Positions 7,875 to 64,000 are shown, numbered from the stretch's first letter. The stretch: 64,000 nucleotides of DNA from Antedon mediterranea (GCF_964355755.1 NC_092676.1:26554871-26618870), one strand, 5' to 3'. Translations and numbers: made by a program. The notes: generated from the sequence alone by a model not told the origin.

Positions 7875-9566
7875 ATGGCTAGCAAGGATTTAAATCTACT
7901 TGGAGATATAAATGATAAACTAGAATGTTCTATCTGTAATGAAAGGCTAGAAGACCCAAAATCACTTGGCTGCCTTCATAGTTTCTGTCTGAAGTGTTTG
8001 GAAAATTGGGTTCAAATCAACAATGGACAGCTAACATGTCCTATTTGTCGCAAAGAGTATCCCATACCAGTAGGAGGGCTTGAAAAGCTTGCCCCAAATA
8101 CAATTCTAAACAACCTCTTGGAAACCATAAAACAACATGAAAAGAAAGATGAGGCTAAAGGCACTACCTTGCTGTGTGCCTCTCATGATCAACCATTGAA
8201 AATGTATTGCACAAAATGCAAATTACCAATATGCGTAGAATGCACTGCAATGGAACATACTGCAGGCGATGGAAAACATGAACTGATTAACATTGTAACA
8301 GCATTTAATACGTTTAAGGAAACCTCAGAAGAATTGAAGAAAGCTGCCAATGAATCCATAAGAAAAACAGAAAATGTACTTAAAGTAGTCACAAAGAATG
8401 CTAAAGAACTAGAAGAAAGTAAAGAGGCAAGTCTCACAGATATTGATAACCAAGTTCAAGAAATGGTACAAGTAATCCAGAAAAAAGGAGATGAAATGAG
8501 AAAAAAAGTTGAAGCAAATTATATGGTGGAAAAGGAAGGTAATGACATACAAATTACAAATTTAACAAAAATCATCTCTGAATTAAACACAAGTGTGAGT
8601 TTCCTAAATCAGTTACTAATGAGTGAGCCAGCAACTGCTATGAAATCAAGTGAGAGTGTATTAAATACACTGATGGATGAAATTAATAAATTTGAAGGAA
8701 TCAAGACAAAGGACAGCAGAAAAATTAACTTTATCAGAAACAAACAGCCAAATGATTTATTGAAAGAAAATTACATTGGAAATGTTGTATTCAAACCACT
8801 TCCTATCAAAGTAGAGGGTCAGCCTAGAGGAGTAGCAAATTGTGATGATTGCTTGCTGGTTTCATTTTGGACCAATGAAATTTACAAATACAACCAATCA
8901 GGAGAAAGTATAAGCAAGATAATACTACCAAAAGGTGTGAGAGTTAACAGAATGTACAGAATGAAGAATGGCAACATAGCATTCACTGATGTTGGTAATA
9001 AATGCATTCAAGTATGTGATATGAATGGTCATGTGATCAAATCCATTGGTAAGGGTGTATTGATTGATCCATGTGGTATTCACATAGATGAGGCAACTAA
9101 TGTTATATATGTAGCAGATTTGATGAATGGATGTGTGTTCATGTTTAACATTAATAGTGGTAAGCAGTTGAAGAAGATAGGACCACAAAATGAAGAACAT
9201 AGATACACTGATGTTACACTTACAAAAACTGGTAAAGTACTTGTAGCAGATGCAGAACAGAATCAAGTGTTATTGTATGATGACAAGAACAAGTCAATGA
9301 AAGTACTCATCAATGGAGGAGATAAAGATGGTAAGGTGATGATGCCATGTGGAGTTGTAGTTGATGAGGATGATAACATCATTACAGCAAGTATTAGCAA
9401 ACTACAACTATTCAGTAGTGATGGACATTTTATCAAAAGAATTGATCAACAAGAAGATGAAATTAGTGTACCACTGCAGTTATGTATTATTTCTCATAAC
9501 CCACATATGGTTGCTGTAGCAAATGAGGGTGACACTGACAGCACAATCAAAATATTTAATTATTAA
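7875..9566 (+). CDS. TRIM-NHL E3 ubiquitin ligase-like protein (RING, B-box2, coiled coil, NHL), 563 aa, single coding exon
   Basis: C3HC4 RING CSIC..CLHSFCLKC..CPIC; B-box CASH..YCTKCKLPICVEC..H..H; heptad region; NHL blades PxG(I/V)..ADxxN. Confidence 0.95.
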   Translation: MASKDLNLLGDINDKLECSICNERLEDPKSLGCLHSFCLKCLENWVQINNGQLTCPICRKEYPIPVGGLEKLAPNTILNNLLETIKQHEKKDEAKGTTLLCASHDQPLKMYCTKCKLPICVECTAMEHTAGDGKHELINIVTAFNTFKETSEELKKAANESIRKTENVLKVVTKNAKELEESKEASLTDIDNQVQEMVQVIQKKGDEMRKKVEANYMVEKEGNDIQITNLTKIISELNTSVSFLNQLLMSEPATAMKSSESVLNTLMDEINKFEGIKTKDSRKINFIRNKQPNDLLKENYIGNVVFKPLPIKVEGQPRGVANCDDCLLVSFWTNEIYKYNQSGESISKIILPKGVRVNRMYRMKNGNIAFTDVGNKCIQVCDMNGHVIKSIGKGVLIDPCGIHIDEATNVIYVADLMNGCVFMFNINSGKQLKKIGPQNEEHRYTDVTLTKTGKVLVADAEQNQVLLYDDKNKSMKVLINGGDKDGKVMMPCGVVVDEDDNIITASISKLQLFSSDGHFIKRIDQQEDEISVPLQLCIISHNPHMVAVANEGDTDSTIKIFNY

Positions 9567-10257
9567 TGTATAAAATATGTCATTACATTAAAGAAAGAAA
9601 GTTAATTGAAAGATCAAGTACATTTATAATCAAAATTATCTATTAATTAGTTTATTCATTTATTATCTTATTTACACTACACACATTATTTTTAAAATTT
9701 CATATCAGGCAAAACTTATGATGGTTGAATGACTTGTATTTTCTAACTTTAATATCATTTAAACTATTGTATATATACTATAATTATAAATAAATGTTTT
9801 TTGAGTTTTGTAAATGTTAACATTGTTGTAGAAATACTGTAAATCTAAGCAAAAACACAGATATGAAGAAATCATCTGAAATAGAAGATAATAAGTCGAC
9901 ACACTGTTTATTTAGGCATTTGAAGGAACAAGACATTGTGTATACAACTTGTTTGAGCAGTTTTAATCTCGTCTTTTATTTGAACGACGTTATAAACAAG
10001 TACATGCACATGTTTCAGGAAGCACTTCCCATAATCAGTGTAAAATTATATTACACGGGCCGTTTATTTGTACTCATTTGCACCGGTATTTAAATAGTAT
10101 TTTTAGAATAAGCATAATTTGAATTACTGTTTATGTTACACTTACAGGCAAAGGTAGTTTTTGTTTTTCTAGTTTTAAATCATTAAATACAACATTATTC
10201 TTATTTCATCAAGTACGCATAGATGTCTATGGTAATGGAAGTAGATTGTACCTTAAT

Positions 10258-12057
10258 AAAGTGATCACATACTGTATATAGTAATCTGTACTACCTACTA
10301 TAATATAAAGTGATCACATACTGTATATAGTAATTTGTACTACCTAGTATAATATAAAGTGATCACATACTGTATATAGTAATCTGTACTGCCTAGTATA
10401 ATATAAAGTGACCACATACTGTATATAGTAATCTGTACTACCTAGTATAATATAAAGTGATCACATACTGTATATAGTAATCTATACTACCTAGTATAAT
10501 ATAAAGTGATCACATACTGTATATAGTAATCTGTACTACCTAGTATAATATAAAGTGATCACATACTGTATATAGTAATCTGTACTACCTAGTATAATAT
10601 AAAGTGATCACATACTGTATATAGTAATCTGTACTACCTAGTATAATATAAAGTGACCACATACTGTATATAGTAATCTGTACTACCTAGTATAATATAA
10701 AGTGATCACATACTGTATATAGTAATCTGTACTACCTAGTATAATATAAAGTGATCACATACTGTATATAGTAATCTGTACTACCTAGTATAATATAAAG
10801 TGACCACATACTGTATATAGTAATCTATACTACCTAGTATAATATAAAGTGATCACATACTGTATATAGTAATCTGTACTACCTAGTATAATATAAAGTG
10901 ATCACATACTGTATATAGTAATCTGTACTACCTAGTATAATATAAAGTGATCACATACTGTATATAATAATCTGTACTACCTAGTATAATATAAAGTGAT
11001 CACATACTGTATATAATAATCTGTACTACCTAGTATAATATAAAGTGACCACATACTGTATATAATAATCTGTACTACCTAGTATAATATAAAGTGATCA
11101 CATACTGTATATAGTAATCTGTACTGCCTAGTATAATATAAAGTGATCACATACTGTATATAGTAATCTGTACTACCTAGTATAATATAAAGTGATCACA
11201 TACTGTATATAGTAATCTGTACTACCTAGTATAATATAAAGTGACCACATACTGTATATAATAATCTGTACTACCTAGTATAATATAAAGTGATCACATA
11301 CTGTATATAGTAATCTGTACTGCCTAGTATAATATAAAGTGATCACATACTGTATATAGTAATCTGTACTACCTAGTATAATATAAAGTGACCACATACT
11401 GTATATAGTAATCTGTACTACCTAGTATAATATAAAGTGATCACATACTGTATATAGTAATCTGTACTACCTAGTATAATATAAAGTGACCACATACTGT
11501 ATATAGTAATCTGTACTGCCTAGTATAATATAAAGTGACCACATACTGTATATAGTAATCTGTACTACCTAGTATAATATAAAGTGACCACATACTGTAT
11601 ATAGTAATCTGTACTGCCTAGTATAATATAAAGTGACCACATACTGTATATAGTAATCTGTACTACCTAGTATAATATAAAGTGATCACATACTGTATAT
11701 AGTAATCTGTACTACCTAGTATAATATAAAGTGATCACATACTGTATATAGTAATCTGTACTACCTAGTATAATATAAAGTGATCACATACTGTATATAG
11801 TAATTTGTACTACCTAGTATAATATAAAGTGATCATATACTGTGTATAGTAATCTGTACTACCTAGTATAATATAAAGTGATCACATACTGTATATAGTA
11901 ATCTGTACTACCTAGTATAATATAAAGTGACCACATACTGTATATAGTAATCTGTACTACCTAGTATAATATAAAGTGATCACATACTGTATATAGTAAT
12001 CTGTACTACCTAGTATAATATAAAGTGATCACATACTGTATATAGTAATTTGTACTA
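10258..12057 (+). repeat. 49-bp minisatellite, ~37 copies
   Basis: Unit AAAGTGATCACATACTGTATATAGTAATCTGTACTACCTAGTATAATAT, near-identical, no spacers. Confidence 0.97.
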
Positions 12058-12180
12058 AAGTAATAGTAATTGTATGTATAATTAAAGCATTTGAATTGAT
12101 GTTTTTTGCAAACAGTTCTAATTGAATGATTTATTTAACCCTTGTATTTTTAGAGTAATACCCTTTTCACATCTGCAAAA

Positions 12181-19429: not shown

Positions 19430-20980
19430 TGACAGGGAGGCTTGTTTTTCCACAGAGGGTTTTGCCTATTAAAATACTTTCAAGCTCTTTGAAAAAGAAC
19501 CTCTAACCCCCTCTGGCTAAAGGCTTGGTATGCTATGAAAATGAACAACATACTACAGAACTACCTACACTACACTTTTTTTTTTTGGCATTACCCATTA
19601 TTTTTAAGTGAAAATGTCAAGATATTTTGTTCAGTTTTAAAAGATGACCATTTTTCTTTCTTACCAGCAATGCATTGTGAACCTTCTCTAAGCACCCTCT
19701 GTCTTCGTAATCTCCACAGTGTGTAGACATCTCAGCTAATAACTTTAATACTTCCAACTTTACATTTGTACCTTCTGGTCCCGCCAGCTCACTGAGGAAC
19801 GGGACGACATGGTTGGAAATGTGTTATTTGTTAGAAAAGAATTTTTAGCATTAAATGGTAAAAGAGATAATTTGTGAATAGGCCACTCTTGTAGGTAGAT
19901 CCACTTTCGTATGCACTTTCAGGTCCAGAGAATTTGACTTTAAGGTTGACTTGGTTTAGGGGTCAAACAATCATTATGAAAATGTGACACAAGGTCAGTG
20001 TCAATTGGTATATGGTTTTTATATTTAATTATTCAGAATGCATACATTCATGTACAGTCTAATGGGACATTTTGCGCTATATAAATTTAAATCCATTACC
20101 ATTACCATTTAGTAAAAAATGACCAGAAATTGCATTTCTGACCTTTGACTCGCACCAAAGGCATGTTTGTATATCCATATATGAGTACGTACACACGTAC
20201 GGCCTAAGTATAGGATGGTTTACGTAATCGTTAAGGTATAAAATATACAGTGTTTGTGCATATTTGTATCTCCATGTATGGGTATGTTCACATAGCGTAA
20301 GTACTGCATGGCGTGGCTTACGCAAGCGTTAAGGTAATCCATGGATTAAAATGCCAATGTGTTTACATATACAGCATTTGTTATGGTGTTAAATACAGAA
20401 GTCCAAGTATCATTTTAAAAAGTAATAACCCAGGGGCCCTCTTTAGATTTGCGTGAATAAAGCTAGTTCACATGTAAAGGCAAGGTGTAAGCCAGCCTTA
20501 CACTGTACGTATGAACACTCCCTATGTAGTTTATCAAAAAATTTGTGTTAAAAGATTTGTGATATATTATGTACTCATATAGTATAAGGCCTGAGTATTT
20601 GCTTCAATGAACAATTATAATCACATTTAACTTTGAAAAACCATTGATAAACAAACTACTGTACATTGTTTCTTTGTTATTCGGTTCACTGACTCAGTTC
20701 AGTGATTCCTGATTTTGCAATATTCACATCTAGTTTAGAAGAAAATTAACTCGATATTTTAAGGTGGAAAAACCAACTTTATCTAATTACTGGAATAAGA
20801 TTTTGTTTTAAAATTTTAGCTGCACAAGTACAGAACAAGGTATTTAACATATAAATTGCTTTTTAAAGTGAATTTAATCTATAATCTATACAAACAGCCA
20901 ATGATATTATTGATAGATTTAGGCGAGGCTGGAGTAAATAATTGTTAATATATATATACAATTATAACTACTATTGCAGG

Positions 20981-22687
20981 ATGGCTAGCAAGAATGTAAG
21001 TCTACTTGGAGATATAGATGAGAAAGTACTAGAATGTTCTATCTGTAATGAAAGACTAGAAGACCCAAAATCACTTAGCTGTCAACATACTTTCTGTCTA
21101 AAGTGTTTGGAGAATTGGGTTCAAACCAATCGTGGCAAGCTAACATGCCCTAGTTGTCGGAAAAAGTATCCCATACCAAAAGGAGGGCTTCAAAAACTTG
21201 CCCCAAATTCAATTCTTAACAACCTCTTGGAAACCATCAAACAACACGAAAATAAAGGTGAGGTTAAAGGCACTGCCGCTCTGTGCGCCTCTCATATTCA
21301 ACCATTGAAAATGTATTGTACAAAATGTAAAGTACCAATATGCATAGAATGCACTGAAATGGAACATGCTGCAGGAGATGGAAAACATGAACTAATTAAC
21401 ATTGTAACAGCATTTAATACGTTTAAAGAAACATCAGAAGACTTAAAGAAAGCTGCCAATGAATCCATAAAAAAAACAGAAAATTTACTCAAAATAGTCA
21501 CAAAGAATGCTAAAGAACTAGAAGAAAGTAAAGAGGCAAGTCTCACAGATATTGATAACCAAGTTCAAGAAATGGTAAAAGTAATCCAGAAAAAAGGAGA
21601 AGAAATGAGAAAAAAAGTTAAAGCAAATTATATGGAGGAAAAGAAAGTCAATGATGTACAAATTACAAATTTAACAAAAATCATCTCTGAATTAAACACA
21701 AGTGTGAGTTTCCTAAATCAGTTACTAATGAGTGAGAAAGCAACTGCTATGAAATCGAGTGAGATTATATTAAATAAAATGATGGATGAAATTAACAAAT
21801 CTGAAGAAATCAAGCAAAAGGACAGCAGACAAATAACCTTCATCAGAAACAAACAACCAATTGATTTATTGAAAGAAATTGACATTGGTGATGTTGCATT
21901 CAAACCACTTTCTATTAAAGTAGAGGGTAAGCCTACAGGAGTAGCAAAGTATGATGATGATTGCTTGCTTGTTTCATTTCACACAAATGAAATTCACAAG
22001 TACAACCAATCAGGAGAATGTATAAGCAAGATTACACTACCAGCAGGTGTGAGACCTAAAAGAATATACAAAATGAAAAATGGCAACATAGCATTCAGTG
22101 ATAACGATAATAAATGCATTAAAGTATGTGATATGAATGGTCATGTGATCAAATCCATTGGTAAGGGTGTATTGATGAATCCACAGGGTATTGACATAAA
22201 TGGGGCAACTAATGTTATATATGTAGCAGATGGAGAAAATGGATGTGTGGTGTTTGACATTAATAGTGGTAAGCAGTTGAAGAAAATAGAAAAACAAGGG
22301 GGTTACTTATGGGCATTCTTAGGGGGAAACTACTCAGATGTTGCACTTACAAAAACTGGTAAATTACTTGTAGTAGATGCAGTAGACAACCAAATATTAT
22401 TGTATGATGACAAGGACAAGTCAATGAAAGTACTTATCAATAAAGGGGTTAAAGGTAAGGTGATGATGCCACGTGATGTTGTAGTTGATCAGGATGATAA
22501 CATCATCATAGCAAGTATTGACAGACTACAACTATTCTGTAGAAATGGATATTTTATCAAAAGAATTGATCAACAAGAAGATGGAATTAGTGTACCAGTA
22601 CATCAGTTATGTATCATTTCTCATAACCCACGTATGGTTGCTGTAGCAAATTACTTGGCTGATACAATTAAAATATTGAATTATTAA
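20981..22687 (+). CDS. TRIM-NHL protein, 568 aa, full length
   Basis: Paralog of 7875; ATG follows acceptor TACTATTGCAG|G; upstream donor AAG|GTATTT at 20839/20840; insertion GGYLWAFLGG in an NHL loop. Confidence 0.95.
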   Translation: MASKNVSLLGDIDEKVLECSICNERLEDPKSLSCQHTFCLKCLENWVQTNRGKLTCPSCRKKYPIPKGGLQKLAPNSILNNLLETIKQHENKGEVKGTAALCASHIQPLKMYCTKCKVPICIECTEMEHAAGDGKHELINIVTAFNTFKETSEDLKKAANESIKKTENLLKIVTKNAKELEESKEASLTDIDNQVQEMVKVIQKKGEEMRKKVKANYMEEKKVNDVQITNLTKIISELNTSVSFLNQLLMSEKATAMKSSEIILNKMMDEINKSEEIKQKDSRQITFIRNKQPIDLLKEIDIGDVAFKPLSIKVEGKPTGVAKYDDDCLLVSFHTNEIHKYNQSGECISKITLPAGVRPKRIYKMKNGNIAFSDNDNKCIKVCDMNGHVIKSIGKGVLMNPQGIDINGATNVIYVADGENGCVVFDINSGKQLKKIEKQGGYLWAFLGGNYSDVALTKTGKLLVVDAVDNQILLYDDKDKSMKVLINKGVKGKVMMPRDVVVDQDDNIIIASIDRLQLFCRNGYFIKRIDQQEDGISVPVHQLCIISHNPRMVAVANYLADTIKILNY

Positions 22688-23674
22688 AGTTAAACCAAAC
22701 ATGAATCTTTCTTTGTACAGTATATCGTTACCGTACAAAGTTAAAGGAACAAACAAAAAATCTTTTGTTTCCATATATCTGAAATGTATGTCTAGTTTTT
22801 AAAGAATGTATTTCCTTTCCACACTAAGAAAGTCATTAGAGCCTTGACTGTCTTTTGCTAAAACTGTCTGCATAAAAATATAATATCAATCACTGTGTAA
22901 AAGTGATAAATCAGTTGGATAGATCTTCGACTGTACTGTATGTTGCCGTCAGGTTTTGGCAAATGTCACAAATACCTATAAATTATTTAACTTATCACTT
23001 ATTACTGATTTGTAGATTTTATGCTTGTTTCTATTTATGTATGTTCTTCAACCCTGTTAATGGTTAAATAAAATGTAAAAAAAAAAAAAAAAAAATCTTT
23101 TAAAAACTAATTGTTGATTTCAAATGGATTGTATCCAAAAATTTTAATCTTACGATGGGTCATTTTTTTGTTTTAATTTTTATATCTTGTGACATTTGAA
23201 ATTTTGATTAATTAAATATAAACAATTGTGTCATATTTGAAGGATCTCGGCTAGGCCAAGCACTTAGCCTGGCCTAAGCCTGTTTACTTCCACTGACCCC
23301 AGCGAGGTGGAATAGCACCACGATGAGTGCTACTATAGAGATTACAAGGTCAGATCACAGCGTCATTACTTCATACATTCATAGGTAGTCTGGGTTCCAG
23401 ACGGAGTTTTGACTTAAAAAGATAAATATTTTTGTGCATGGCGTTTCTTACGTATACTACTCAAGCTGGATTACAAAAATAAAAACGTCGACTGCTGGAC
23501 TAACATATAAAAAGACAATAAATAAGTCTAGTTCACTGGCAAAAGTTCTTATCTGTTTACGGGAACAGTCAACTATGACCCATGTGGATATGATCGTTGT
23601 GTGCACTGTTCACTCAATCTAATAATATACAGTAGATTGCCTATTAAAGATGTATTGTCCCCCAAAAAACATGG

Positions 23675-23983
23675 AAAAAGAAAGATGAGATGAAGAGGAA
23701 AGTTGAAGCAAACTATATACCGGTAAAGGAAAAGAAAGTTAATGGTGTACAAAATTACAAATTTAACAAAAATCAACTCTGAATTAAACACAATTGTGAG
23801 TTCTCTAAATCAGTTGAGTGAGCCAGCAACTGCTATGAAATCAAGTGAGATTGTATTAAATAAAATGATGGATGAAATGAATAAATTATTAATTCAAGTC
23901 AGTTATGTATTATTTCAGATAACCCACATATGATTGTTGTAGCATATTACTTGGATAAGACAATTAAAGTATTACATTATTAA
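23675..23983 (+). pseudogene. TRIM-NHL remnant: coiled-coil piece fused to the last NHL blade
   Basis: KITNLTKINSELNT..EPATAMKSSEIVLNKMMDE then CAAGTCAGTTATGTATTATTTCAGATAACCCA..CATTATTAA; frameshifted, no start. Confidence 0.85.
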
Positions 23984-25461: not shown

Positions 25462-26802
25462 TATCATCTTCCCAAGTTATAATAATAATTCACTGTGTAA
25501 AGTTGATGGACAAGTTAATATTTTCTTTGATTCACTTACTACTATTTCTGTTAGAAATTGTTTTATTTGTAATCACCTTACTACTGATTTGTATATTTTT
25601 GCTTGTTTTATTATATTGTATAATTTTTTTTTTTAAACTTATTATGATTTCTAATTCTAACATAATATTTTATCCCATACTTCATTCATTTATTGATAAT
25701 AACTTTTTTCCACAACGTAGTATTTTCTTTACACAAAGAATAAAATTGAAAAATGATCTTTAAATAAATTATACAGCTTTAAGAATTGTTTTTATTTTGT
25801 TTAAATAGTTTTACCAATTAATTTTGTTATGAGGTGAAACTTTTTGTTTTTATAATTTAAATATTATGTGAATTTTGTCAACACTATACTATGTTCATTG
25901 GAGTATAAATGAAATTTAATAGTTTAATAATAATTAATATCAAAATAAAAATGATAGCATAGCCTACTAAGAGCAGTTATATATGATATATAGAGATATA
26001 CAGTTAATGTATACTACTACTGTTGTACACTGTTCTAAGACATTAGTGTAGAAAAAAATATAACAGACATGAAGAAATCATCTGAATTGCAGTAGAAGAT
26101 GTGGTAATAGGCCTATTTCATAAGAGTTTAAAGACAATATATGCAGTTCTCTAGTTTTAAATTATACATATATACTGTTATGTAGGCCTATTATAAAACA
26201 CATTTATTTTAATGATGAACGTTATTCGCATTCTATCAATTTATAATATAATTATTAATTAATTTTCCTTCAAATGTAAAATTAATTAAAGCATGAAACA
26301 ACTTCGTTTATAACGAACATTTCAGCTACAAGCATAAGGTATTTTAAAACATTTTTATAAAATAAACCTTTTAAAAGTATAATAAAGTCTTTATCTGAAT
26401 ATTAATAAAGATTAAAAACCATTGATGTCACAAAAAAATCAGTTATAGTACTAATTGCAAATGTTGGCTACCATGTTGAATGACTTGCGTTTGCTATTAC
26501 ATCAACAGCTACAATAACACTATGTGGACCTATAAAATGATATGGCTAACTATACAGTACTATATTCCAACAACAAATTACAAATACACTACATATTTAA
26601 GAGACTGTGTTCAAAAGTTAATCTTTCAAATCAAAATATACAGTACTCTCCATCCAACTTTTTTGTATAAATTACAAATTACTATTGCAGGATGGCTAGC
26701 AACAGCCTAGTTTTACTTGGAGATAGAGATGAGAAATACTTTGATATTGCACTTACAAACACTGGGAACGTACTGTAGCAGATAGAAATAATCACCAAGT
26801 AG

Positions 26803-26870
26803 TAGAGACTTTTACCAACCCATGTGGATGTGAACGTTGTTTGTACGTTCACTCAATCTAAAAGTCCCTA
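26803..26870. mobile_element. 68-bp mini-MITE inside the pseudogene
   Basis: TIR TAGAGACTTTTA / TAAAAGTCCCTA; internal part also at ~23578-23622; absent from paralogs. Confidence 0.6.
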
Positions 26871-26937
26871 TTATTTTATGACAACAGGGACCAGTCATTG
26901 AAAGTATTTATCAATGAAAGAGTTGAAGATGGTAAGG

Positions 26938-28990
26938 GAGTGTTGACAAAGTGCGAGGCAGCGAGGCAAGCGAGGCATGCGAGGCATGCCAAATATTTGT
27001 GCGAGGCATCATTTTATCATTTCCAAAAGTGCGAGGCATGCGAGGCATATAGTTTACAATTTCAAAAAGGTGCGAGGCATATCTTAACGTGCTATTATGC
27101 TATATTATAGGCCTAATAATCAATCGATACAAGCGTATCTAAATAGATTCGTGTATACACTCATCATGTTGTTTATTTTTATGTAACGATTGTTTTTTCA
27201 TTCAAGTCATATCGTGTCAAATTTTACTTTTACAAAAGTGCCCAAACTACGGTTCAAAAATCTGAACGACAGTCTTCAACTTTCGATAAACAATAATTGT
27301 TATAGCGACACACTCATCAAATGACTGCAATGTTTGTTGGCATTTCGAGCGTGTTCACTCACATCATGGATTAAAGAATAGATTCTTTAATCCATGCTCA
27401 CATCATGTCTCTCGAACATAGCAGAGTGAAAATAATATTTTGTCACACCCCTGCGCCTAGATCCGGTAGACCCGAGAGATGGAAAATCCCTCTTTACTAT
27501 TTAGCAGGTAGCGGAATGATTCAGCCCTCAGCTCAGAGGATTGTGGTGCATTCCCCTCCTATAGCACGTGGTTTCAGCAGCAACGCACAGACTTCTCTCT
27601 GAGCGGCGTGCCAAAGACATTTTTGACATTCCATTCTCTAGGAACAACACGTGTACCTCTCTCGCAAATAAGGTGAACAGCGATTGCCAGGACAAGTTCA
27701 ATAACTGGCGGTGAATAAAAGGTAACTGATATGCCGATCCAATAACATGCCGCAAAGAAAAAAATTGCGACAGAATTCTGGAGCGCGTGTGAAAAAAGAC
27801 TTACGTCCGACAATTGTAATACTAGGCCTAAAATTAAACTTTAGCTAATATGCTTAGCCCTAACCTAGATAAAAGGCCTATGTAGAAAATAATTTAATCA
27901 ATTTTGATAAAATAATAATTGGTGTAATATTTAATAATGATACACTATTCCTGTTTTAGTAAGCTAGGTATATTACGCTAGTTTCCTTCGCTTGTATTTT
28001 TACTCCAAATTTGATAACTAACTTTATCGTGTGAATACCACACCTTAGAAGTATACCTCATGAGTACTTTAATGAAAGAATCACATAAAAAGTAACAATT
28101 AAATCCTTAAATTAATGATTTTACAGGCGTGTTTCTCGCACACTGTTCGCGAATTTCACTTATTCAATGTTCAATATTTTTGTTTCTATGGAGCGCCAAA
28201 AGAGCAACGATAATAGAGAACTAAAACTCAGTGGAATGCGTCAATTTCTCATGCATTTATTGGTGAAAAACACGTTTTATTTCAATATATTTGTTAATTT
28301 GTCAATAAAAATGTTGTAATATGTTACTGCAGATACTGTTCTGTTTTCAAAGAATAATAATCGATCCTAAATCAACATCACTACCTAGTCTAGACCTAGG
28401 ACATCCTACTAAGGATATTATGATGAATTTTTCTATTTTATTCTTTAAAAGGTTAACGAAACCGTGTACATTATCAACAGTAACATTTTTCCTTACTGAC
28501 AGTGACAAAATCTATTGAAATTGTACTTGATTTTCACCAAATAATGCGTTAAATATAAATGGATTCCACAGAGTTTTTAGCCCTCTAATTAATTTTGCTC
28601 TTTTGGCGTTCCATAGAAACCAAAATATTGAACATTAAGTGTGCGAAATGCGAGAAAAACAACGTCTGTAAAATCACCAATTTAATGGATTTATTGTTAC
28701 TTTTATGTGATTTTTCTTCATTAAAGTAGGCCTACTAATTCTAAGCTGTGGTATTCAGGATAAAGCCTTGGTTAAATTACAAGGCAGGTGCAAAAGGAAA
28801 CTAGCCTAGCGGGCCTAGGCCTAGGCTACTTCAATTTCGGTGATTTCCTGCCTTGCAATTTTGAGAAATGATAAAATGATGCCTCGCATTTTTTGATGAT
28901 GGTAAAACGATGCCTCGCATAAATTTCTGACTTGCCTCGCATGCCTTCCCTGCCTCGCGTGCCTCGCTGCCTCGCACTTTGTTACTACCC
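26938..28990. mobile_element. Non-autonomous Mutator-like (MULE) element, ~2.05 kb
   Basis: 9-bp TSD ATGGTAAGG (26929-26937, 28991-28999; single in intact paralogs); TIRs G(A/G)GT..ACAAAGTGCGAGGCAGCGAGGCA with GCGAGGCA repeats. Confidence 0.88.
27365..27396. mobile_element. 32-bp palindrome with perfect 7-bp target duplication
   Basis: CTCACAT|CATGGATTAAAGAAT-AG-ATTCTTTAATCCATG|CTCACAT. Confidence 0.75.
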
Positions 28991-29659
28991 ATGGTAAGGT
29001 GAAGTTGCCACAGATACGGTAGTTGTAGTTGATGAGGATGATAACATCATCATAGCACGACAATCTAAAACTACAGTATTCAGTAGTGATGGGCATTTTA
29101 TCAAAAGAATTGATAAACAATTATCAGTTATGTATCATTTTTTCATAACCCACGAATGGTGACTAGCAAATGGTGATGACACAATTAAAATATTTAATTA
29201 TTAAAGTATTATAAAATAATATTAAAGGGACGTTGAATGAAAGATTACAATTAAACAAACAGTGGTGTTGGTAGACTGAGAATTTTGTTGTATTTAATAA
29301 TAGTCTATTCATGCAAATCATGATTAATAAATAATATCATTAATACTGTATGTATCAATCAAGTATTATTATATAAGGATAATAACATTTCATTTAGCAA
29401 AAAAGAAGCTGAATGAGGCAATGTGGAGGTAAAAATGTTTGATCAACCAAATAAACCAGTAATTAAAAAAATAATAACTATTATCTTTTAGTCTATTTAT
29501 TTTAAGGTACTGATCCATTTGTATATTTAATGATTTTAAACTGTTAATAATAACAACCTAATATTGCAATTTTCTATTTTAGTGGTATTTTAATTTTATT
29601 AAAACACAATTTATTTATAAAATAAAATGATATATGATATATTGATATATGATATAAAT

Positions 29660-44170: not shown

Positions 44171-44410
44171 ATTTACAAAACTCTGTATACAGAATAAAAT
44201 AATAATACCTTGGACTTTTATTGAAGTACAAAATCAATATAACTAAATGTTCTTCTTTTGTTGTACATAATTGGAGCATGTCTTGTACACTAAAGATAGG
44301 TGTAGGTAGTTGTGTAGTATGTTGTTGATTTTCATAGCATACAAAGCCCTTAACCAGAGGGGGTTTGAGTTGTTATTGTTGTCAATATTACATAAATTGC
44401 ACAAAAGAGT

Positions 44411-45504
44411 GGGGTGTCACGAAAGCTCAGACCACGAAAGCTCAGACCCCCTAAGACCTAAGATCACGAAAGCTAAGACCCAACACCTAAGATTACAAAT
44501 ATTTATCTTTCGCACCTGCCTTGTATTTTAACTCCCAACATTTATTCTGAATACCACAACTTAGAATTGGCACTTTCATGAAAAAGAATCACATAAAAAG
44601 TAACAAATACATTTTTAAATTGATGATTTTGCAGACGTTTTTCTCGCACACAAAATGACTAGCCTACAGTACAGTAGGCCTACCCCACATGGGCCATGTT
44701 CAATGTTTTTGTTTCTATGGAACGTCAAAAGAGCAAAAATTATATAGAGGGCTGAAAACTCTGTGGAGTCCATCTCTACAGTGTGGATGGAACAATGTAA
44801 AATTAAAATTGTAATGATAATAGTATAATCATGCAAGTACGAAGAAATAAATACTGGCAAATAAATTTTAATTTAAAAATCATGATAAGTTTTTTTGTTT
44901 CGTTTTCTTTCTGTTTTTATACTTGTACTATTATTGTTGCTCTTTTGGCGCTCCATAGAAACAAAAACATTGAGCATGGGTAGCTCTCGAGGAGTTACAT
45001 TGTCATTACAGTATACAAAGAAACACATCTGTAAAATCATCAATTTAAAGGATTTATTTATTTGTTATTATGTGTTTCTCCTTCTGAAAGTACTTATAAG
45101 TCCTAATTTTAAAGTGTGGTGTTCAGGATAAAGTTAGTCAACAAATTTGGAGTCAAAATACAAGAAAGGCAGGTGCGTAAGAAAAACATCCTCTGAAGCA
45201 ACACAATGGAGTAAATATATACCAACAAACAACCCGTCAAGTTTGTTTGTTGTAAAGAAAAAATATACATTTACTCAACGGGCGAAAATAATGTGAGTTT
45301 ATCTATGTTTTGCGGTAGTATTAAATTATATTTATGGTAATAAATGAAACCTACTGTGTTTAAAATTATGTATGGATAAACAAGTATTGTTTTTAAGCTG
45401 TAGTATATCTTAGTATTTGTAATCTTAGGTGTTGGGTCTTAGCTTTCGTGATCTTAGGTCTTAGGGGGTCTGAGCTTTCGTGGTCTGAGCTTTCGTGACA
45501 CCCC
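44411..45504. mobile_element. Non-autonomous DNA transposon (MULE-like) with ~91-bp TIRs
   Basis: GGGGTGTCACGAAAGCTCAGACC.../...GGTCTGAGCTTTCGTGACACCCC; flanking duplication (C)AAAAGAGT(G), 8-10 bp. Confidence 0.9.
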
Positions 45505-45544
45505 AAAAGAGTGACATAATGATATATTGTGTATCATAGTATAA

Positions 45545-51336: not shown

Positions 51337-51820
51337 ATGGCTAGCAACAGCTTGATTGTGTCAATAAAAGAGAAAGACCTAGAATGTCCTATTTTAATGA
51401 AAGACTAACAAATCCAAAATCACATCATAATTTCTGTCAAGTGTTTGGAGAATTTGGTTTAAAAAAACAAAGGCAAGTTAACATGTCCAAATTGTCCCAA
51501 CAAAAATCCCATTCCAGAAGGAGGGCTTCAAAATCTTGCACAAAAAACATTTCTAAACAATCTCTTAGAAACTGTCAAACAACAAGAAGAGGTTTGGAAA
51601 AGAATTTAATACGTTTAAGGAAACATCAGAAAAAGCTGCCAATGAATCCATAAAAAACCAGAAAATATACTTAGAGTAGTCACAAAGAATGCTAAAGAAC
51701 TAGAAGAAAGTAAAGAGGCAAGTTTCACGGATATTGATAACCAAGTTCAAGAAATAGTACAAGTAATCCAGAAAAAAGGAGAAGAAATGAAGAGGAAAGT
51801 TGAAGCAAATTATATGGAAA
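51337..51820 (+). pseudogene. Decayed TRIM 5' half (RING remnant, B-box deleted, part of coiled coil)
   Basis: TTACAG|GATGGCTAGC, several frameshifts, then AATGCTAAAGAACTAGAAGAAAGTAAAGAGGCAAGT; ends at the next copy's upstream module; donor at 49705/49706. Confidence 0.88.
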
Positions 51821-52410
51821 GCAGGCTGTTTCTATCTTGTTGAAATTTCATTGATTATGAGTGACAATAAAGTGCTTGAATAGATGCTTCAGTTGTGTTT
51901 TGTAATACTGATTTTGAAGGTGTAACACCTTGTTGAAACAGATGAATGCTTTGATAACATGATCACAAGTTTCAAAGTGCAAAAACCAACTTTATTCGAT
52001 TACTGTAAACGATTGGTTTTAATTCCTGAAACTATCATTTGAGCTGGGAAATTATAAGGCATTTAACATAAAAAATGATATTAGATTTATTTAGTTGAAT
52101 TAGTTCAGTGTAGCTGTAGTCTCCTATGCAAACAGCTAGTCAAGATAAACACTAATAGATTCTTGTTGTGTTAACATGGATTGTTGGCTTGGATATTAGT
52201 AACTAGATTATTTTTCCTACAATTAAATGCCAAGCAGAGATGTATTGTACAGGCATCCGATGATCACATGACAAGACGTAACCAGTATAGTAAAACCAAA
52301 TTGATAATGGGTGGATAAATAAATAAATTGCATTTTTTTAATTCAATAAATTGAAAATATGCAATTTTCTATCTATGTGTAATTTATTTTAAAATAAAAT
52401 CGTTTGCAGA

Positions 52411-54048
52411 ATGGCTAGCAAGGATTTAAATCTACTTGGAGATATAAATGATAAACTAGAATGTTCTATCTGTAATGAAAGGCTAGAAGACCCAAAATCA
52501 CTTAGCTGCCATCATAGTTTCTGTCTGAAGTGTTAACTTGCACCAAATACAATTCTTAACAACCTCTTGGAAACCATCAAACAACATGAAGTAAAAGATG
52601 AGGTTACTGGCACTGCCTCTCTGTGTGCCTCTCATGCTAAACCGTTAGAAATGTATTGTACAAAATGTAAAGTACCAATATGCATAGAATGCACTGAAAT
52701 GGAACATGCCGCAGGAGATGGAAAACATGAACTAATTAACATTGTAACAGCATTTAATACGTTTAAGGAAACATTAGAAGACTTAAAGAAAGCTGCCAAT
52801 GAATCCATGAGAAAAACAGACAATGAACTTAAAGTAGTCACAAAGAATGCTAAAGAACTAGAAGAAAGTAAAGATGCAAGTCTCAGAGATATTGATAACC
52901 AAGTTCAAGAAATGGTACAAGTAACCAAGAAAAAAGGAAAGAAAATGAGAAAAAAAGGAGAAGAAATGAGAAAAAAAGAAGAAGAAATGAGAAAAGAAGT
53001 TGAAGCAAATTATATGAAGGAAAAGAAAGTTAATGATGTAAAAATTACAAATTTAACAAAAATCATCTCTGAATTAAACACAAGTGTGAGTTTCGTAAAT
53101 CAGTTACTAATGAGTGAGCCAGCAACTGCTATGAAATCAAGTGAGAGTGTATTAAATACACTAATGGATGAAATTAATAAATCTCAAGAAATCAAGCAAA
53201 AGGACAGCAGACAAATTAACTTCATCAGAAACAAACAGTCAATTGATTTACTGAAAGTTGGAAATGTTATAATCAAACCACTTCCTATCAAAGTAGAGGC
53301 TAATCCTTGGGGAGTAGCAAAGTGTGATGATGATTACTTGCTGGTTTCATTTCTCTCAAATGAAATTCACAAGTACAACCAATCAGGAGAATGTATAAGC
53401 AAGATTACACTACCAAAAGGTGTGATGGTTAATAGAATGTACAGAATGAAGAATGGCAACATAGCGTTCAGTGATAAAGGTAAAACATGCATTCAAGTAT
53501 GTGATATGAATGGTCATGTGATCAAATCCATTGGTAAGGGTGTATTGATGGATCCACGTGGTATTCACATAGATGAGGCAACTAATGTTATATATGTAGC
53601 AGATGCAGGAAATGGATGTGTGTTCATGTTTGACATTAATTATAGTGGTAAGCAGTTAAAGAAGATAGGATCACAAAATGAAGAACATAGATACTCTGAT
53701 GTTGCACTTACAAAAACTGGTAAAGTACTTGTAGCAGATAAAGGACAGCATCAAGTATTATTGTATGATGACAAGAACCAGTCACTGAAAGTATTTATCA
53801 ATGAAGGAGTTAAAGATGGCAAGGTGAGGTTGCCACATGGAGTTGTAGTTGATGAGGATGATAACATCATCATAGCAAGTACTGACAAACTACAACTATT
53901 CAGTAGTGATGGACATTTTATAAAAAGAATTGATCAACAAGAAGATAGAATTAGTGTACCACTTCAGTTATGTATCATCTCTCATAATCCATGTATGGTT
54001 GCTGTAGCAAATTACAGTGAAAAAACAATCAAAATATTTAATTATTAA
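52411..54048 (+). pseudogene. TRIM-NHL copy with an in-frame RING deletion creating a stop at codon 42; downstream frame intact
   Basis: CTG AAG TGT TAA CTT GCA CCA (TAA at 52534-52536), ~87 bp missing relative to 55797; 493-codon ORF 52567-54048 in the same frame. Confidence 0.85.
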
Positions 54049-54529
54049 TGTATAAAATATATCATTACATTAAAGAAACAAAGTTAAATGAAAGATCAAT
54101 TACATTAAATCAAAATTATTTATTAATTTATTACACAAAGCTTAAATATTTAAAAACAATCTTCAAAATAAATTGGAAATTTTAAAACTCAAAATAACCA
54201 TGCAATATCTATTTTTAAAATTTCATGAGGCGAAACTTATGATGGTTGAATTCCTTGTATTTTATAACTTTAATATCATTTGAACTAATGTTATAATTAT
54301 GTCATCATTGAAAAATAAATGCTTTCTTAGTTGTTTTTTTTTTGTGGGTAATATTTAGTATTTTTAGAATAAGCCCAATTTGAATTATTGTACAGTATAT
54401 TATAATAATATATGTTACACTTGTAGGCAAAGGCAGTTTTTGTTTTAGTTTTCCTAGTTTTAAATCATTAAATACAACATTATTCTTATTTTATCAAGTA
54501 CGCATAGATACCTATGGTAATCACAGTGA

Positions 54530-55157
54530 AGTGATCACAATACTGTATATAGTAATCTGTACTACCTAGTATAATATAAAGTGATCACATACTGTATATA
54601 GTAATCTGTACTACCTAGTATAATATAAAGTGATCACATACTGTATATAGTAATCTGTACTGCCTAGTATAATATAAAGTGATCACATACTGTATATAGT
54701 AATCTGTACTACCTAGTATAATATAAAGTGATCACATACTGTATATAGTAATCTGTACTGCCTAGTATAATATAAAGTGATCACATACTGTGTATAGTAA
54801 TACTGTCTACCTAGTATAATATAAAGTGATCACATACTGTATATAGTAATCTGTACTACCTAGTATAATATAAAGTGATCACATACTGTATATAGTAATC
54901 TGTACTACCTAGTATAATATAAAGTGATCACATACTGTATATAGTAATCTGTACTGCCTAGTATAATATAAAGTGATCACATACTGTATATAGTAATCTG
55001 TACTACCTAGTATAATATAAAGTGATCACATACTGTATATAGTAATCTGTACTGCCTAGTATAATATAAAGTGATCACATACTGTGTATAGTAATACTGT
55101 CTACCTAGTATAATATAAAGTGATCACATACTGTGTATAGTAATCTGTACTACCTAC
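54530..55157 (+). repeat. 49-bp minisatellite, ~13 copies
   Basis: Same unit and same 3'-flank position as 10258-12057. Confidence 0.95.
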
Positions 55158-55796: not shown

Positions 55797-56228
55797 ATGG
55801 CTAGCACGGATTTAAATCTACTTGGAGATATAAATGATAAACTAGAATGTTCTATCTGTAATGGAAGGCTAGAAGACCCAAAATCACTTGGCTGCCTTCA
55901 TAGTTTCTGTCTGAAGTGTTTGGAAAATTGGGTTCAAACCAACAATGGACAGCTAACATGTCCTATTTGTCGCAAAGAGTATCCCATACCAGCAGGAGGG
56001 CTTCAAAAGCTTGCCCCAAATACAATTCTTAACAACCTCTTGGAAACCATCAAACAACATGAAGAGAAAGATGAGGCTAAAAGCACTGCTTCTTTGTGCG
56101 TCTCTCATGCTAAACCATTAGAAATGTATTGTACAAAATGTAAAGTACCAATATGCATAGAATGCACTGCAATGGAACATGCCGCAGGAGATGGAAAACA
56201 TGAACTAATTAACATTGTAACAGCATAG
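55797..56228 (+). pseudogene. 3'-truncated TRIM copy: intact RING plus B-box only (143-aa ORF)
   Basis: Very similar to 7875 up to INIVTA, then TAG from unrelated sequence; no coiled coil or NHL follows. Confidence 0.8.
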
Positions 56229-59077: not shown

Positions 59078-59787
59078 ATGCCTATCACATACCAGTACGA
59101 TATTATCATTACAGAACTGGTGTTTTAACACGTATTGAATTGTGATACATGTAGATGTATTGATAATTGTTTCATATGGTAAAGTGAACAATTATAATCA
59201 CATTCAACTGTTGAAAATCATCAACAAACAAACTATTGTGATGGATTGATTTAATTAAGTGTTCTGCATCCCAAATTTTGAAATCATCACACTACACCTA
59301 CAGTAGTCTAGAATATTGCTCTGGACATATATGATATTTCAACGCAGAAAAACCAACTTTACAGCATTTCATTATTGGGAAAGTTAGTTTTAATTCTTGT
59401 AACTAACATTTGAATACAGTACAAGGTATTTACATATAAATTGCTTTTTGTGGATTTAATTTGTATACAAGTCTCATATACAAACAACCATGATACTGTA
59501 GATGGACTTAGTTAGATGTACAGTACTTAGGCATGGCTGGAATTGGAGAACTAGGTACATGTGTCCTATTTTATTCTCCAGTCTTGTTTCTGAAATCTAA
59601 TCTAAAATATGGTGTGGATATTCAGTTAATAATTAATTGTTATTTAATGCTCCATATTCATCTAAATTACACACAAAATCCTAAAGTAATAACTTTTATT
59701 GTGTTGGGTAGAAAGGAACATGGTGAGAATAAACAGTTTGTAATATTATTTTTATTAAACAAAATAATTATAAATTACTATTACAGG

Positions 59788-61548
59788 ATGGCTAGCAAGG
59801 ATTTAAGTCTACTTGGAGATATAGATGAGAAAGTACTAGAATGTTCTATCTGTAATGAAAGGCTAGAAAACCCAAAATCACTTAGCTGTCTTCATAGTTT
59901 CTGTCTGAAGTGTTTGAAGAATTGGGTTCGAACCAATGGCAAGCTAACATGCCCTATATGTCGCAAAGAGTATCCTATTCCAGTAGGAGGGCTTCAAAAA
60001 CTTGCACCAAATACCTTTCTTAACAACCTTTTGGAAACTGTAAAACAACACGAACAGAAAAGGAAGGTTAAAGGCACTGCCTTTCTGTGCCCCTCTCATG
60101 CTCAACAATTAAAAATGTATTGTACAAAATGTAAAGTACCAATATGCATAGAATGCACTGAAATGGAGCATATTGCAGGGGATGGAAAACATGAACTAAT
60201 TAACATCGCAACAGCATTTAATACGTTTAAGGAAACATCAGAAGACTTAAAGAAAGCTGCCAATGAATCGATACAAAAAATTGAAAATGTACTCAAAATA
60301 GTCACAAAGAATGCTAAAGAACTAGAAGAAAGTAAAGAGGCAAGTATCACAGATATTGATGACCAAGTTCAAGAAATGGTACAAATAATCAAGAAAAAAG
60401 GAGAAGAAATGAGAAAAAAAGTTGAAGCAAATTATATGGAGGAAAAGGAAGTTAATGACGTACAAATTACAAATTTAACAAAAACCATCTCTGAATTAAA
60501 CACAAGTGTGAGTTTCCTAAATCAGTTACTAAAGAGTGAGCCAGCAACTGCTATGAAATCAAGTGGGATTGTATTAAATAAAATGATGGATGAAATTAGT
60601 AAATCTGAAGAAATCAAGCAAAAGGACAGCAGACAAATTAACTTCATCAGAAACAAACAGCAAATTGATTTATTGAAAGAAAATGACATTGGAAATGTTA
60701 CATTCAAACAAGTTAATATTAAGGAAGAGGATATGCCTAGCAGAGTAGCAAAGTGTGATGATGACATTGGAAATGTTGTATTCAAACCACTTCCTATCAA
60801 AGTAGAGGCTAATCCTTGGGGAGTAGCAAAGTGTGATGATGATTACTTGCTGGTTTCATTTCTCTCAAATGAAATTCACAAATACAACCAATCAGGAGAA
60901 TGTATAAGCAAGATTACACTACCAGAAGGTGTGAGAGTTAACAGAATGTACAGAATGAAGAATGGCAACATAGCATTCAGTGATGTCGGTAAAAAATGCA
61001 TTCAAGTATGTGATATGAATGGTCATGTGATCAAATCTATTGGTAAGGGTGTATTGAAGAATCCACATGGTATTCACATAGATGAGGCAGCTAATGTTAT
61101 ATATGTAGCAGATGCAGGAAATGGATGTGTGTTCATGTTTAACATTAATAGTAAGCAGTTGAAGAAGATAGGAACACAAAATGAAGAACATGATTACTAT
61201 GATGTTACACTTACAAAAATTGGTAAAGTATTTGTAGCAGATGAAGCACAGCATCAAGTATTATTGTATGATGACAAGGACAAGTCAATGAAAGTACTCA
61301 TCAATAGAGGATTTGAAGATGGTAAGGTGAGGTGGCCAAAAGGAGTTGTAGTTGATGAGGATGACAACATCATCATAGCAAGTATTGACAAACTACAACT
61401 ATTCAGTAGTGACGGACATTTTATCAAAAGGATTGATCAACAAGAAGAAATTATTTATCCAGAGCAGTTATGCATCATTTCTTATAACCCATGTATGATT
61501 GCTGTAGCAAATTGGGGTGGCAAAACAATCAAAATATTAAATTATTAA
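59788..61548 (+). CDS. TRIM-NHL protein, 586 aa, full length, with a 26-aa duplication at the NHL start
   Basis: ATG after TACTATTACAG|G; donor at 59425/59426; all domains intact. Confidence 0.95.
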   Translation: MASKDLSLLGDIDEKVLECSICNERLENPKSLSCLHSFCLKCLKNWVRTNGKLTCPICRKEYPIPVGGLQKLAPNTFLNNLLETVKQHEQKRKVKGTAFLCPSHAQQLKMYCTKCKVPICIECTEMEHIAGDGKHELINIATAFNTFKETSEDLKKAANESIQKIENVLKIVTKNAKELEESKEASITDIDDQVQEMVQIIKKKGEEMRKKVEANYMEEKEVNDVQITNLTKTISELNTSVSFLNQLLKSEPATAMKSSGIVLNKMMDEISKSEEIKQKDSRQINFIRNKQQIDLLKENDIGNVTFKQVNIKEEDMPSRVAKCDDDIGNVVFKPLPIKVEANPWGVAKCDDDYLLVSFLSNEIHKYNQSGECISKITLPEGVRVNRMYRMKNGNIAFSDVGKKCIQVCDMNGHVIKSIGKGVLKNPHGIHIDEAANVIYVADAGNGCVFMFNINSKQLKKIGTQNEEHDYYDVTLTKIGKVFVADEAQHQVLLYDDKDKSMKVLINRGFEDGKVRWPKGVVVDEDDNIIIASIDKLQLFSSDGHFIKRIDQQEEIIYPEQLCIISYNPCMIAVANWGGKTIKILNY

Positions 61549-62587: not shown

Positions 62588-62711
62588 GCAATGGCAACAT
62601 AGCATTCAGTGATGTTTGTAATAGATGCATTCAAGTATGTGATAAGAATGGTCATGTGATCAAATCCATTGGTAAGGGTATATTGGAAGACCCATGTGGT
62701 ATTCACATAGA
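62588..62711 (+). pseudogene. Isolated NHL fragment (blade 2-3)
   Basis: NGNIAFSDVCNRCIQVCDKNGHVIKSIGKGILEDPCGIHI. Confidence 0.85.
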
Positions 62712-62959: not shown

Positions 62960-63368
62960 AAGCAGGATATTTGTAAAATGTTTTACTCATCAGTGATGTT
63001 ATCTATTTGGGATTATTGTGGGGTTATTGTATGTTGGTGTAATTGGTTCGTCTGTGCAAACGCTTGACTCTTTCTACAGCGAACGTCTTGGCGATGTGTT
63101 CCATGCTATATTGGAAGACACCAACCATCCTCTTCATAACAACAATATCGGCTCCGTTATCGTTAGAAGTGGTAGGATGAGGACGGTGAATGCGCAGACG
63201 GACCGTTACAAATACTCGTTCTACTCAGCTGGGATAAGGCATTATAACAAAACATTTCTTAGATAGTCCCCCTTATATTTATATTTATTTATTTTAGGCA
63301 AGCCAAGGTCATTTATGAGCCCTGTAAATTCCATTTATTTTGAACAATAAATGAATCTGTATCTGTAT
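62960..63368 (+). mobile_element. 3' end of a non-LTR retrotransposon (Rex1/Babar-like)
   Basis: HPLH..RSGR..TDRYKYSFYSAGIRHYN motif, AATAAA and (ATCTGT)n tail; splits the conserved AAGGTA^TTTAACAT site. Confidence 0.75.
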
Positions 63369-63717
63369 TTAACATAAAAAATTAAATTACATTTATTTAG
63401 TTGAATTAGTTCAGTGTAGCTGTATAGTCTCCAATGCAAACAGTATAGTCAAGATACACAGTAATAGATTCTGGTTGAGCTTAACATGGATTGTTGGCTT
63501 GGATATTAGTAACTAGATTATTTTTCCTACGATTAAATGCCAAGCAGAGATTTATTGTACAGACATCCGATGATCACATGAAAAGAAGAAACCAATATAG
63601 TAAAACACAATTGATAATGGGTGGATAACTAAATTGAATTTTTTTTATTCAATAAATTGAAAAAACATGTAATTTTCTATTTATGTGTAATATATTAAAA
63701 ATTACATCTTTTGCAGA

Positions 63718-64000
63718 ATGGCTAGCAAGTATTTAAGTCTACTTGGAGATATAGATGAGAAAGTACTAGAATGTTCTATCTGTAATGGAAGGCTAGAAGA
63801 CCCAAAATCACTTAGCTGCATTCATAGTTTCTGTCTGAAGTGTTTGGAGAAATGGGTTCGTACCAATTGTGGCAAGCTAACATGCCCTATTTGTCGCAAA
63901 GAGTACCCAATACCAAAAGGAGGGCTTGAAAAACTTGCACCAAATACATTTCTTAACAACCTCTTGGAAACCATCAAACAACATGAAGAGAAATATGAGG
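63718..64000 (+). CDS. TRIM-NHL paralog, 5' part (RING), runs off the window
   Basis: TTTTGCAG|AATGGCTAGC; MASKYLSLLGDIDEKVLECSICNGRLEDPKSLSCIHSFCLKC..CPIC, open to the window end. Confidence 0.9.
   Translation, partial: MASKYLSLLGDIDEKVLECSICNGRLEDPKSLSCIHSFCLKCLEKWVRTNCGKLTCPICRKEYPIPKGGLEKLAPNTFLNNLLETIKQHEEKYE

Follow-up and report, generated by a model that had tools for sequence, protein, structure and literature searches.

Why should a crinoid genome carry a row of putative ubiquitin-ligase genes side by side, and what might their products bind? The question arises from a stretch of 64,000 nucleotides of the feather star Antedon mediterranea (GCF_964355755.1 NC_092676.1:26554871-26618870), referred to here as the window, in which positions 7875-64000 hold a tandem birth-and-death array of TRIM-NHL genes. 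We propose, with a probability of about 0.55, that the array encodes a varied repertoire of receptors in the cytoplasm, which would bind and ubiquitinate changing foreign, probably pathogen-derived, ligands. The proposal is built on a pattern of selection that falls on one predicted face of the NHL β-propeller.

The array and its proteins

A DNA profile built from the four complete copies matched 25 segments of the window, and had no match when the window was reversed. On the plus strand these segments join into 15 pieces. An inverted-repeat insertion has split one copy into two of them, at 26.7 kb and 29.0 kb, which leaves 14 TRIM-NHL loci over 56 kb. A preliminary description of this DNA had claimed at least 13 copies or fragments on the same strand in 56 kb, and the count holds apart from a sole minus-strand piece of 96 bp (33462-33557). 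Four of the 14 loci (A, B, E and H; Table 1) are complete genes with a single coding exon for RING, B-box2, coiled coil and NHL, and at least seven are truncated or broken, five of them being broken fragments. TRIM-derived coding sequence makes up 23% of 7875-64000. The small share of complete loci, together with the lineage-specific clades reported below, bears out the birth-and-death history that had been described.

A Pfam scan of the complete copies likewise confirmed the described order of RING, B-box, coiled coil and NHL in one uninterrupted coding frame. All zinc ligands of the C3HC4 RING are intact in A, B, E, H and T, and the RING is absent or broken in D, F and G. The arginine after the last RING cysteine and the zinc ligands of B-box2 are intact in A, B, E and H. 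Pfam zf-B_box scores above its cut-off and is followed by a long coiled coil, seen as a helix at 140-248 in the model of copy A; the same scan gave neither a filamin nor an SPRY match in the window copies. From the intact RING we infer that the complete copies would have E3 ubiquitin-ligase activity. The AlphaFold model of copy A (mean predicted local distance difference test score, pLDDT, 83.6; predicted template modelling score, pTM, 0.52) shows the NHL domain as a six-bladed propeller of 24 strands. Its nearest solved folds in Foldseek are the NHL domains of TRIM2, TRIM3, Thin and TRIM71, with template modelling (TM) scores of 0.74-0.80 on the target, and the NHL identity to TRIM2 and TRIM3 is 22-24%.

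Selection on the NHL propeller

The ratio of nonsynonymous to synonymous change (ω) between pairs of complete copies rises along the protein, from 0.18-0.62 (RING) and 0.24-0.54 (B-box) through 0.45-0.92 (coil) to 0.60-1.15 (NHL domain). Codon site models were run in our own implementation (F3x4, not PAML) with naive empirical Bayes for the sites. Comparing M2a with M1a, twice the log-likelihood difference (2Δl) for the NHL domain was 50.2 with the four complete copies and 78.9 with seven copies, and no positive selection was detected in RING-B-box-coil (2Δl 2.3, p 0.32). The NHL signal was retained when codons near indels were masked, leaving 184 (22.1, 52.6 with six copies, and 73.2), and after further masking of 16 multi-nucleotide cells (31.9). 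By thirds of the domain it was 8.7, 22.6 and 14.4.

We defined the top face as the b-c and d-a loops, following the ligand-binding surface of Brat (PMC4015489). With seven copies, the sites whose posterior is above 0.8 number 24 among 73 in top loops, 0 among 46 in bottom loops and 4 among 126 in strands (Fisher p 2e-6); with the four complete copies there are ten, all in top loops and none in bottom loops or strands. Under one synonymous rate, ω is 2.11 for the top, 0.30 for the bottom and 0.64 for the strands, with a likelihood-ratio test (LRT) value of 15.3 against a top ω of 1. Synonymous change is not raised on the top face, being 0.104 there versus 0.099 in strands at fourfold codons for the same residue. 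Protein entropy of top versus bottom loops is 1.42 versus 0.61 in 13 Antedon short forms and 1.81 versus 0.82 in 48 Anneissia proteins. The models support positive selection that would be confined to the predicted NHL top face and absent from RING-B-box-coil. It is in this evolutionary signature that the earlier idea of an NHL-based analogue of TRIM5 and finTRIM clusters appears to hold.

Several points weigh against a receptor array. The selection tests use 4-7 sequences, an in-house model and naive empirical Bayes. Top-loop ω is 0.89-1.12 when the class has a free rate scale. Under a free synonymous multiplier for the top face it falls from 2.11 to 1.44, a value that does not significantly exceed 1 (LRT 1.47), though adding the multiplier is not significant either (1.91). 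The propeller scaffold is weakly constrained, with a background ω of 0.64-0.94 that would also fit decay, and scaffold ω on their own branches is 1.64 for B and 1.21 for D. [quoted passage not shown] The search of sequencing runs listed none recorded as RNA. In run X1, which we guess to be RNA, no GT..AG joint lies at any predicted intron among the joints listed, and no long piece matches copy A without differences. An exact look-up in the protein collection found none of seven frames (A, B, E, H, the genomic frame of D, T and the downstream frame of G).

Could the pattern reflect decay alone? Redundant copies from unequal crossing-over might drift under relaxed constraint, with loops that tolerate change and an ω>1 class that is an artefact of the model. 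The broken loci, the scaffold ω values and the top-face ω near 1 under a free scale are all as this explanation expects, and so is some mosaicism between copies. The nearest neighbours among the copies change along the gene, which suggests mosaicism, and the pairwise homoplasy index (PHI) gave p values of 0.04, 0.32, 0.10 and 0.68, one of four tests being significant; tracts between pairs reached p<0.05 in 5 of 15 cases, and in 1 of 15 after Bonferroni correction, so that gene conversion between copies would be weakly supported. However, bottom loops are equally exposed, yet they hold none of the selected sites and have a low ω, and pairwise ω in the RING and B-box is mostly 0.2-0.6. Neutral and mosaic simulations also fall far below the data. 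None of 31 single-tree nulls (maximum 6.0) and none of 31 mosaic nulls (maximum 9.6) reached the observed 51.4. When neutral change to 10% divergence was simulated 2000 times, moreover, the frame of D stayed open in just 9 runs. We regard drift under relaxed constraint as unlikely.

Predicted function

The TRIM coiled coil forms dimers, the RING becomes active on clustering driven by the target, and the target is tagged with ubiquitin. In the window proteins, coiled-coil dimers would accordingly present two NHL propellers to a target, clustering on it would switch on the RING, and ubiquitin would lead either to degradation of the target or to the start of a signal. The ligands that exert the selection would be foreign. 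Acidic residues (D+E) outnumber basic ones (K+R) in the top loops of 11 of 13 copies, a residue count rather than an electrostatic map, and protein ligands would therefore be likelier than RNA. Copies D and F, which have no RING, might serve as decoys or co-sensors. For D, as a possible decoy, an open frame is unlikely by chance, but the scaffold ω is 1.21.

If this immune reading is true, a second, independent origin of diversified TRIM receptors, on another fold, lies outside the vertebrates, and the TLR and NLR expansions of invertebrate deuterostomes are accompanied by a repertoire for recognition in the cytoplasm that works through ubiquitin. About 24 named top-face codons predict where specificity resides. 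A more elaborate picture can be drawn, and as a whole we offer it tentatively, as something rather less than probable. In it the array is a crinoid intracellular repertoire resembling TRIM5 and finTRIM but built on the NHL β-propeller, in which dozens of E3s with fast turnover would turn twelve top loops, acting like the complementarity-determining regions of antibodies, against foreign proteins. Gene conversion with broken neighbours would supply variation, RING-less forms would act as decoys or co-sensors, and the window genes would be a streamlined, filamin-less form with the layout of TRIM32.

An arms race need not be with pathogens. The genes could be E3s of the germline or stem cells, or RNA-binders, whose top face chases transposon products or another selfish element. 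Such internal conflict predicts the same signature of selection; the TRIM-NHL relatives Mei-P26 and NHL-2 act in germline and small-RNA pathways, and very young mobile insertions lie within the array. The acidic top loops of the window copies are, however, unlike the electropositive RNA-binding face of Brat, and the top face of TRIM71 is likewise basic and RNA-binding (PMC4015489, PMC9634614). This explanation seems to us quite unlikely.

Ancestry of the family

The protein of copy A has 75 matches, of which 20 are from Antedon, 52 from Anneissia japonica and three unnamed, so that 72 of 75 are crinoid; a profile search adds five Antedon records. Copies beyond the window were counted through annotated proteins only, which gives a lower bound. 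Seven records from outside the window without filamin or without B-box1 (P0003-P0006, P0078, P0085 and P0087) are on the same 30.56-Mb contig as the window records P0065 and P0081, and relatives also occur on six other Antedon contigs. The typical crinoid member is about 715 residues long and carries a filamin domain besides two B-boxes; among 17 crinoid proteins scanned, the Pfam Filamin match is above cut-off in 5 and weak in five more. Aligned with these, the window copies show two clean deletions, of about 55 residues (B-box1) and about 80-90 residues (filamin). B-box1 is deleted in all window copies and kept in the paralog P0005. The segment between coil and NHL is 94-140 residues long in 49 of 52 Anneissia rows, and the 8-12-residue join of the window copies is found in none.

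We built an NHL tree of 78 rows (3 of 81 were dropped as they have no NHL) and a tree of the shared domains from a chosen subset of 27 rows, both with a quick search and support from the Shimodaira-Hasegawa-like approximate likelihood-ratio test (SH-aLRT). The filamin-less genes form one Antedon-only clade (98 in the NHL tree, 100 in that of the shared domains), which nests in a clade with filamin-bearing Antedon genes (99 and 100). P0005, which lacks filamin and has B-box1, is sister to the remaining filamin-less genes (93). The nesting and the position of P0005 indicate that filamin was lost first and B-box1 second, in the Antedon line, and the TRIM32-like layout is therefore convergent. As two simple deletions suffice to obtain it, the layout is a poor guide to orthology. 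The match to TRIM32 and TRIM56 proposed earlier thus survives as a likeness of layout to TRIM32 only; kinship is not supported, the missing filamin and B-box1 being recent deletions, and TRIM56 has both B-boxes.

Full-length vertebrate TRIM2, TRIM3, TRIM32, TRIM56 or TRIM71 sequences were not among the results of the protein searches, and the comparison with vertebrate TRIMs is a ranking of scores against solved domains. Among solved structures, TRIM3 and TRIM2 give the highest scores for copy A. Against NHL domains the family profile gives 182.6 bits for Thin, 179.8 for TRIM2, 173.2 for Lin41 and 169.4 for TRIM3, and against RINGs 93.7 for TRIM2, 81.4 for TRIM56 and 47.2 for TRIM32. The family is of class VII and belongs to subfamily C in the sense of PMC3503706. 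In the ESM Atlas, used as a lead only, RING, B-box and NHL clusters are mostly from echinoderms, molluscs and chordates, which suggests similar families in other echinoderms and in molluscs. In the gene model of one Anneissia japonica record, P0080 (XP_033116386.1), filamin-NHL pieces of the family are linked with repeated death-effector-like domains; the model could reflect a genuine immune fusion or be a chimera of the prediction.

No one-to-one pairs of Antedon and Anneissia genes occur in the NHL tree, and the expansions are species-specific; stable orthologs were among the findings that the preliminary description had named as telling against it. This bears on whether the copies might instead be regulators of development or regeneration that divide endogenous mRNA or protein substrates among them, as TRIM71, Brat and TRIM32 do. 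[quoted passage not shown] Endogenous substrates, however, predict stable orthologs and conserved faces, whereas we see species-specific clades and a hypervariable face, and in a primate screen TRIM2 has two selected sites only, both outside known domains (PMC3845644). We consider a developmental role very unlikely.

Copy inventory and the duplicated unit

That the array is an assembly artefact of uncollapsed haplotypes or mis-joined repeats, another of the findings named as telling against it, is hardly credible: the region is repeat-rich and no single public contig spans it, but the complete copies differ pairwise by synonymous divergence (dS) of 0.15-0.31 and nonsynonymous divergence (dN) of 0.10-0.18, the former too high for uncollapsed haplotypes, contigs of sequencing run X5 fit unique junctions with 0 differences (for example 22624-23410, 30881-31949 and 33169-33742), and a contig from another sample covers 33227-33802 at 96%.

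Table 1. Positions of array copies, predicted introns and inserted repeats in the window
Feature	Position	Strand	Remarks
Predicted 5' untranslated region intron of A	7550-7873	+	GT..AG, 324 nt, ATG one base past acceptor; motifs only
Copy A	7875-9566	+	Complete RING-B-box2-coiled-coil-NHL gene, 563 aa, one coding exon
49-bp minisatellite	10256-12057	+	Expanded within 3' flank of A, about 37 copies
Predicted intron of B	20840-20979	+	Motifs
Copy B	20981-22687	+	Complete gene, 568 aa
Broken fragment	23676-23982	+	Coiled-coil piece fused to NHL end
Broken copy	26692-29204	+	Start and NHL pieces, split by inverted-repeat insertion of about 2 kb (26946-28982)
Inverted-repeat insertion	arms 26946-26989 and 28939-28982		In the 26.7/29.0-kb broken copy
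Copy D	32174-33415	+	Open 413-aa frame, coiled coil and NHL, no RING or B-box
Inverted NHL-end piece	33462-33557	-	96 bp
NHL C-terminal fragment	33706-34075	+	
Copy F	35408-36347	+	No RING, frameshifted B-box, deletion of the coiled coil, NHL complete
Young long terminal repeat (LTR) retroelement	39163-42435	-	3.3 kb, TG..CA ends, 4-bp target duplication
Copy E	42473-44170	+	Complete gene, 565 aa
Broken copy	51337-51819	+	Frameshifted RING, coiled-coil piece
Copy G	52411-54048	+	Stop at codon 42 and RING deletion of about 87 bp; 503-codon frame downstream open
Copy T	55797-56228	+	Truncated, RING and B-box only, 143 aa
Predicted intron of H	59426-59786	+	Motifs
Copy H	59788-61548	+	Complete gene, 586 aa, internal 78-bp duplication at coiled-coil-NHL junction
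NHL fragment	62590-62711	+	
Copy L	63718-64000	+	RING intact, frame open up to window edge

The duplicated unit had been described as an upstream module, non-coding exon, intron, single coding exon and 3' flank. A splice-acceptor-like YAG stands one base 5' of the ATG at ten starts. Upstream of A, B and H, at a distance of 140-361 nt, there are donors of the form AAG|GTATTT, and AAG|GCATTT, with GC for GT, lies upstream of G (52059) and T (55446); the donor of copy L is interrupted by an insertion of about 400 bp. The donor module of E is probably 37112-37165, with the donor at 37155. These motifs suggest a non-coding 5' exon, so that exon and intron of the described unit are matched by motifs and, as noted above, by no spliced joint among those listed in run X1. 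The rest of the described unit is borne out in part: the upstream module is full at G (51824-52070), T, L and F, as well as at an orphan site (34.6 kb), and partial at A, B, H, 37.1 kb and 49.7 kb, and a common 3' flank lies behind A, F, G and H only. Sharing of the longer upstream module and of the 3' flank is limited to the younger copies. Because the copies have upstream modules, a predicted intron and 3' flanks in common, they arose through tandem duplication at the DNA level. Retroposition as the origin of the copies was considered and rejected, since the units have the predicted 5' intron and flanks.

Cover from run X1 falls on coding and 3' portions of several copies but not on the predicted intron of A, and it falls on repeats too; we used it neither for nor against expression. 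Over the first 386 residues, RefSeq XP_071955261.1 (P0065) equals the frame of D (32174-33331), and the NHL domain of F, an open 301-residue frame at 35442-36344, equals protein record P0081. The RefSeq model of D splices into an acceptor at 36643, in the 3' flank of F, bypassing the stop of D, and the nine residues at its end are encoded at 36644. Since an X1 contig runs across 36643 without splicing, the end of this model is doubtful.

Two likenesses between copies were noted. G and T have upstream regions that are 94-95% identical, and the RING of T is nearly identical to that of A and its B-box to that of G. The 26-residue coil-NHL duplication of H (60683-60842) also occurs in P0010 on another Antedon contig (40.9 Mb), which suggests movement or conversion between chromosomes.

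Comparison with known systems

The direct relatives of the array are the expanded crinoid subfamily-C TRIMs of Antedon and Anneissia that RefSeq calls 'TRIM2-like', 'TRIM71-like', 'TRIM45-like' and 'wech-like'. RING, B-box2, coil, NHL and top-face variability are alike; most of the Anneissia proteins keep the filamin segment, and the full-length ones also B-box1, whereas the window copies have neither. In mode of evolution the array resembles the finTRIM and TRIM5 clusters, which are also clustered and lineage-specific, include truncated variants and show selection in the C-terminal ligand-binding domain, with RING and B-box conserved in finTRIMs (PMC2657112). It is not a member of that group, as it has no B30.2: their C-terminal domain is B30.2/PRY-SPRY, that of the array a six-bladed NHL propeller. 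finTRIMs were discovered as virus-induced transcripts, and the array in genomic sequence.

TRIM32 has the same layout of RING, B-box2, coiled coil and NHL without filamin (PMC2533329). Its RING scores far below that of TRIM2 against the family profile (47 versus 94 bits), and it is listed as one gene in human, not an array, whereas the window copies came to this layout via recent deletions. Drosophila Thin provides the top NHL profile match, level with TRIM2 (182.6 versus 179.8 bits). TRIM2 and TRIM3 are the best solved-structure matches by both sequence and fold, but they keep filamin and are conserved genes, unlike the window copies. TRIM56 also has no filamin and, unlike the window copies, keeps B-box1 (PMC2533329). 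Its antiviral action needs E3 activity and a C-terminal NHL-like region (PMC6623546), and it binds viral RNA, whereas the top faces here are mostly acidic; it could be a functional precedent only. The nematode and plant F-box and MATH-BTB families are birth-and-death ubiquitin-ligase receptors for which pathogen defence has been hypothesised (PMC1866355), but these are cullin adaptors with unrelated binding domains, whereas the window genes would be self-contained RING ligases.

In the passages available from a primate screen, TRIM2 is the sole NHL-bearing gene named as selected (PMC3845644). Among echinoderms, sea urchin immune cells under UVB stress have genes annotated as TRIM for their chief class of upregulated effectors, and the purple sea urchin has 140 'tripartite motif' genes (PMC13043383); an expanded TRIM-like family is reported in a brittle star (PMC11310086). 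Large echinoderm TRIM families are thus already known, mainly as annotation counts without an account of their driver, and the array offers a testable one, in which selection acts on the top face of the NHL domain. A paper on oyster immunity contains no passage on TRIMs (PMC4346834). Our full-text search, which reached few subscription papers and no echinoderm genome supplements (these may list families), found no paper on crinoid TRIM arrays or positive selection on the NHL top face. What appears new here is the modelled positive selection in an NHL propeller, on its predicted top face.

Repeats and mobile elements

The LTR retroelement ends 37 bp upstream of the ATG of E, within the predicted intron of that copy. 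Its LTRs agree at 572 of 574 aligned bases, and a primer-binding-like site and a purine tract are present; its single long frame has no Pfam match. The element probably separates E from the donor at 37155 and may affect splicing of E. Among longer proteins no fused Antedon model with E was found, the five matches all being from Anneissia. Directly behind E lies an inverted-repeat element (44410-45505) with perfect arms of 92 nt.

The 49-bp minisatellite sequence expanded behind A recurs in about 13 copies behind G (54529-55156) and as one copy each in the flanks of F and H. A fragment at 29676-30295, which has no Pfam match, resembles the C-terminal end of a long interspersed nuclear element (LINE) reverse transcriptase. 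Upstream of A, 101-bp satellite arrays at 1-2058 and 5667-7146 stand in inverted orientation around a 3.6-kb interior with palindromic and 15-bp repeats, and this satellite-flanked stretch looks like one large foldback-type element.

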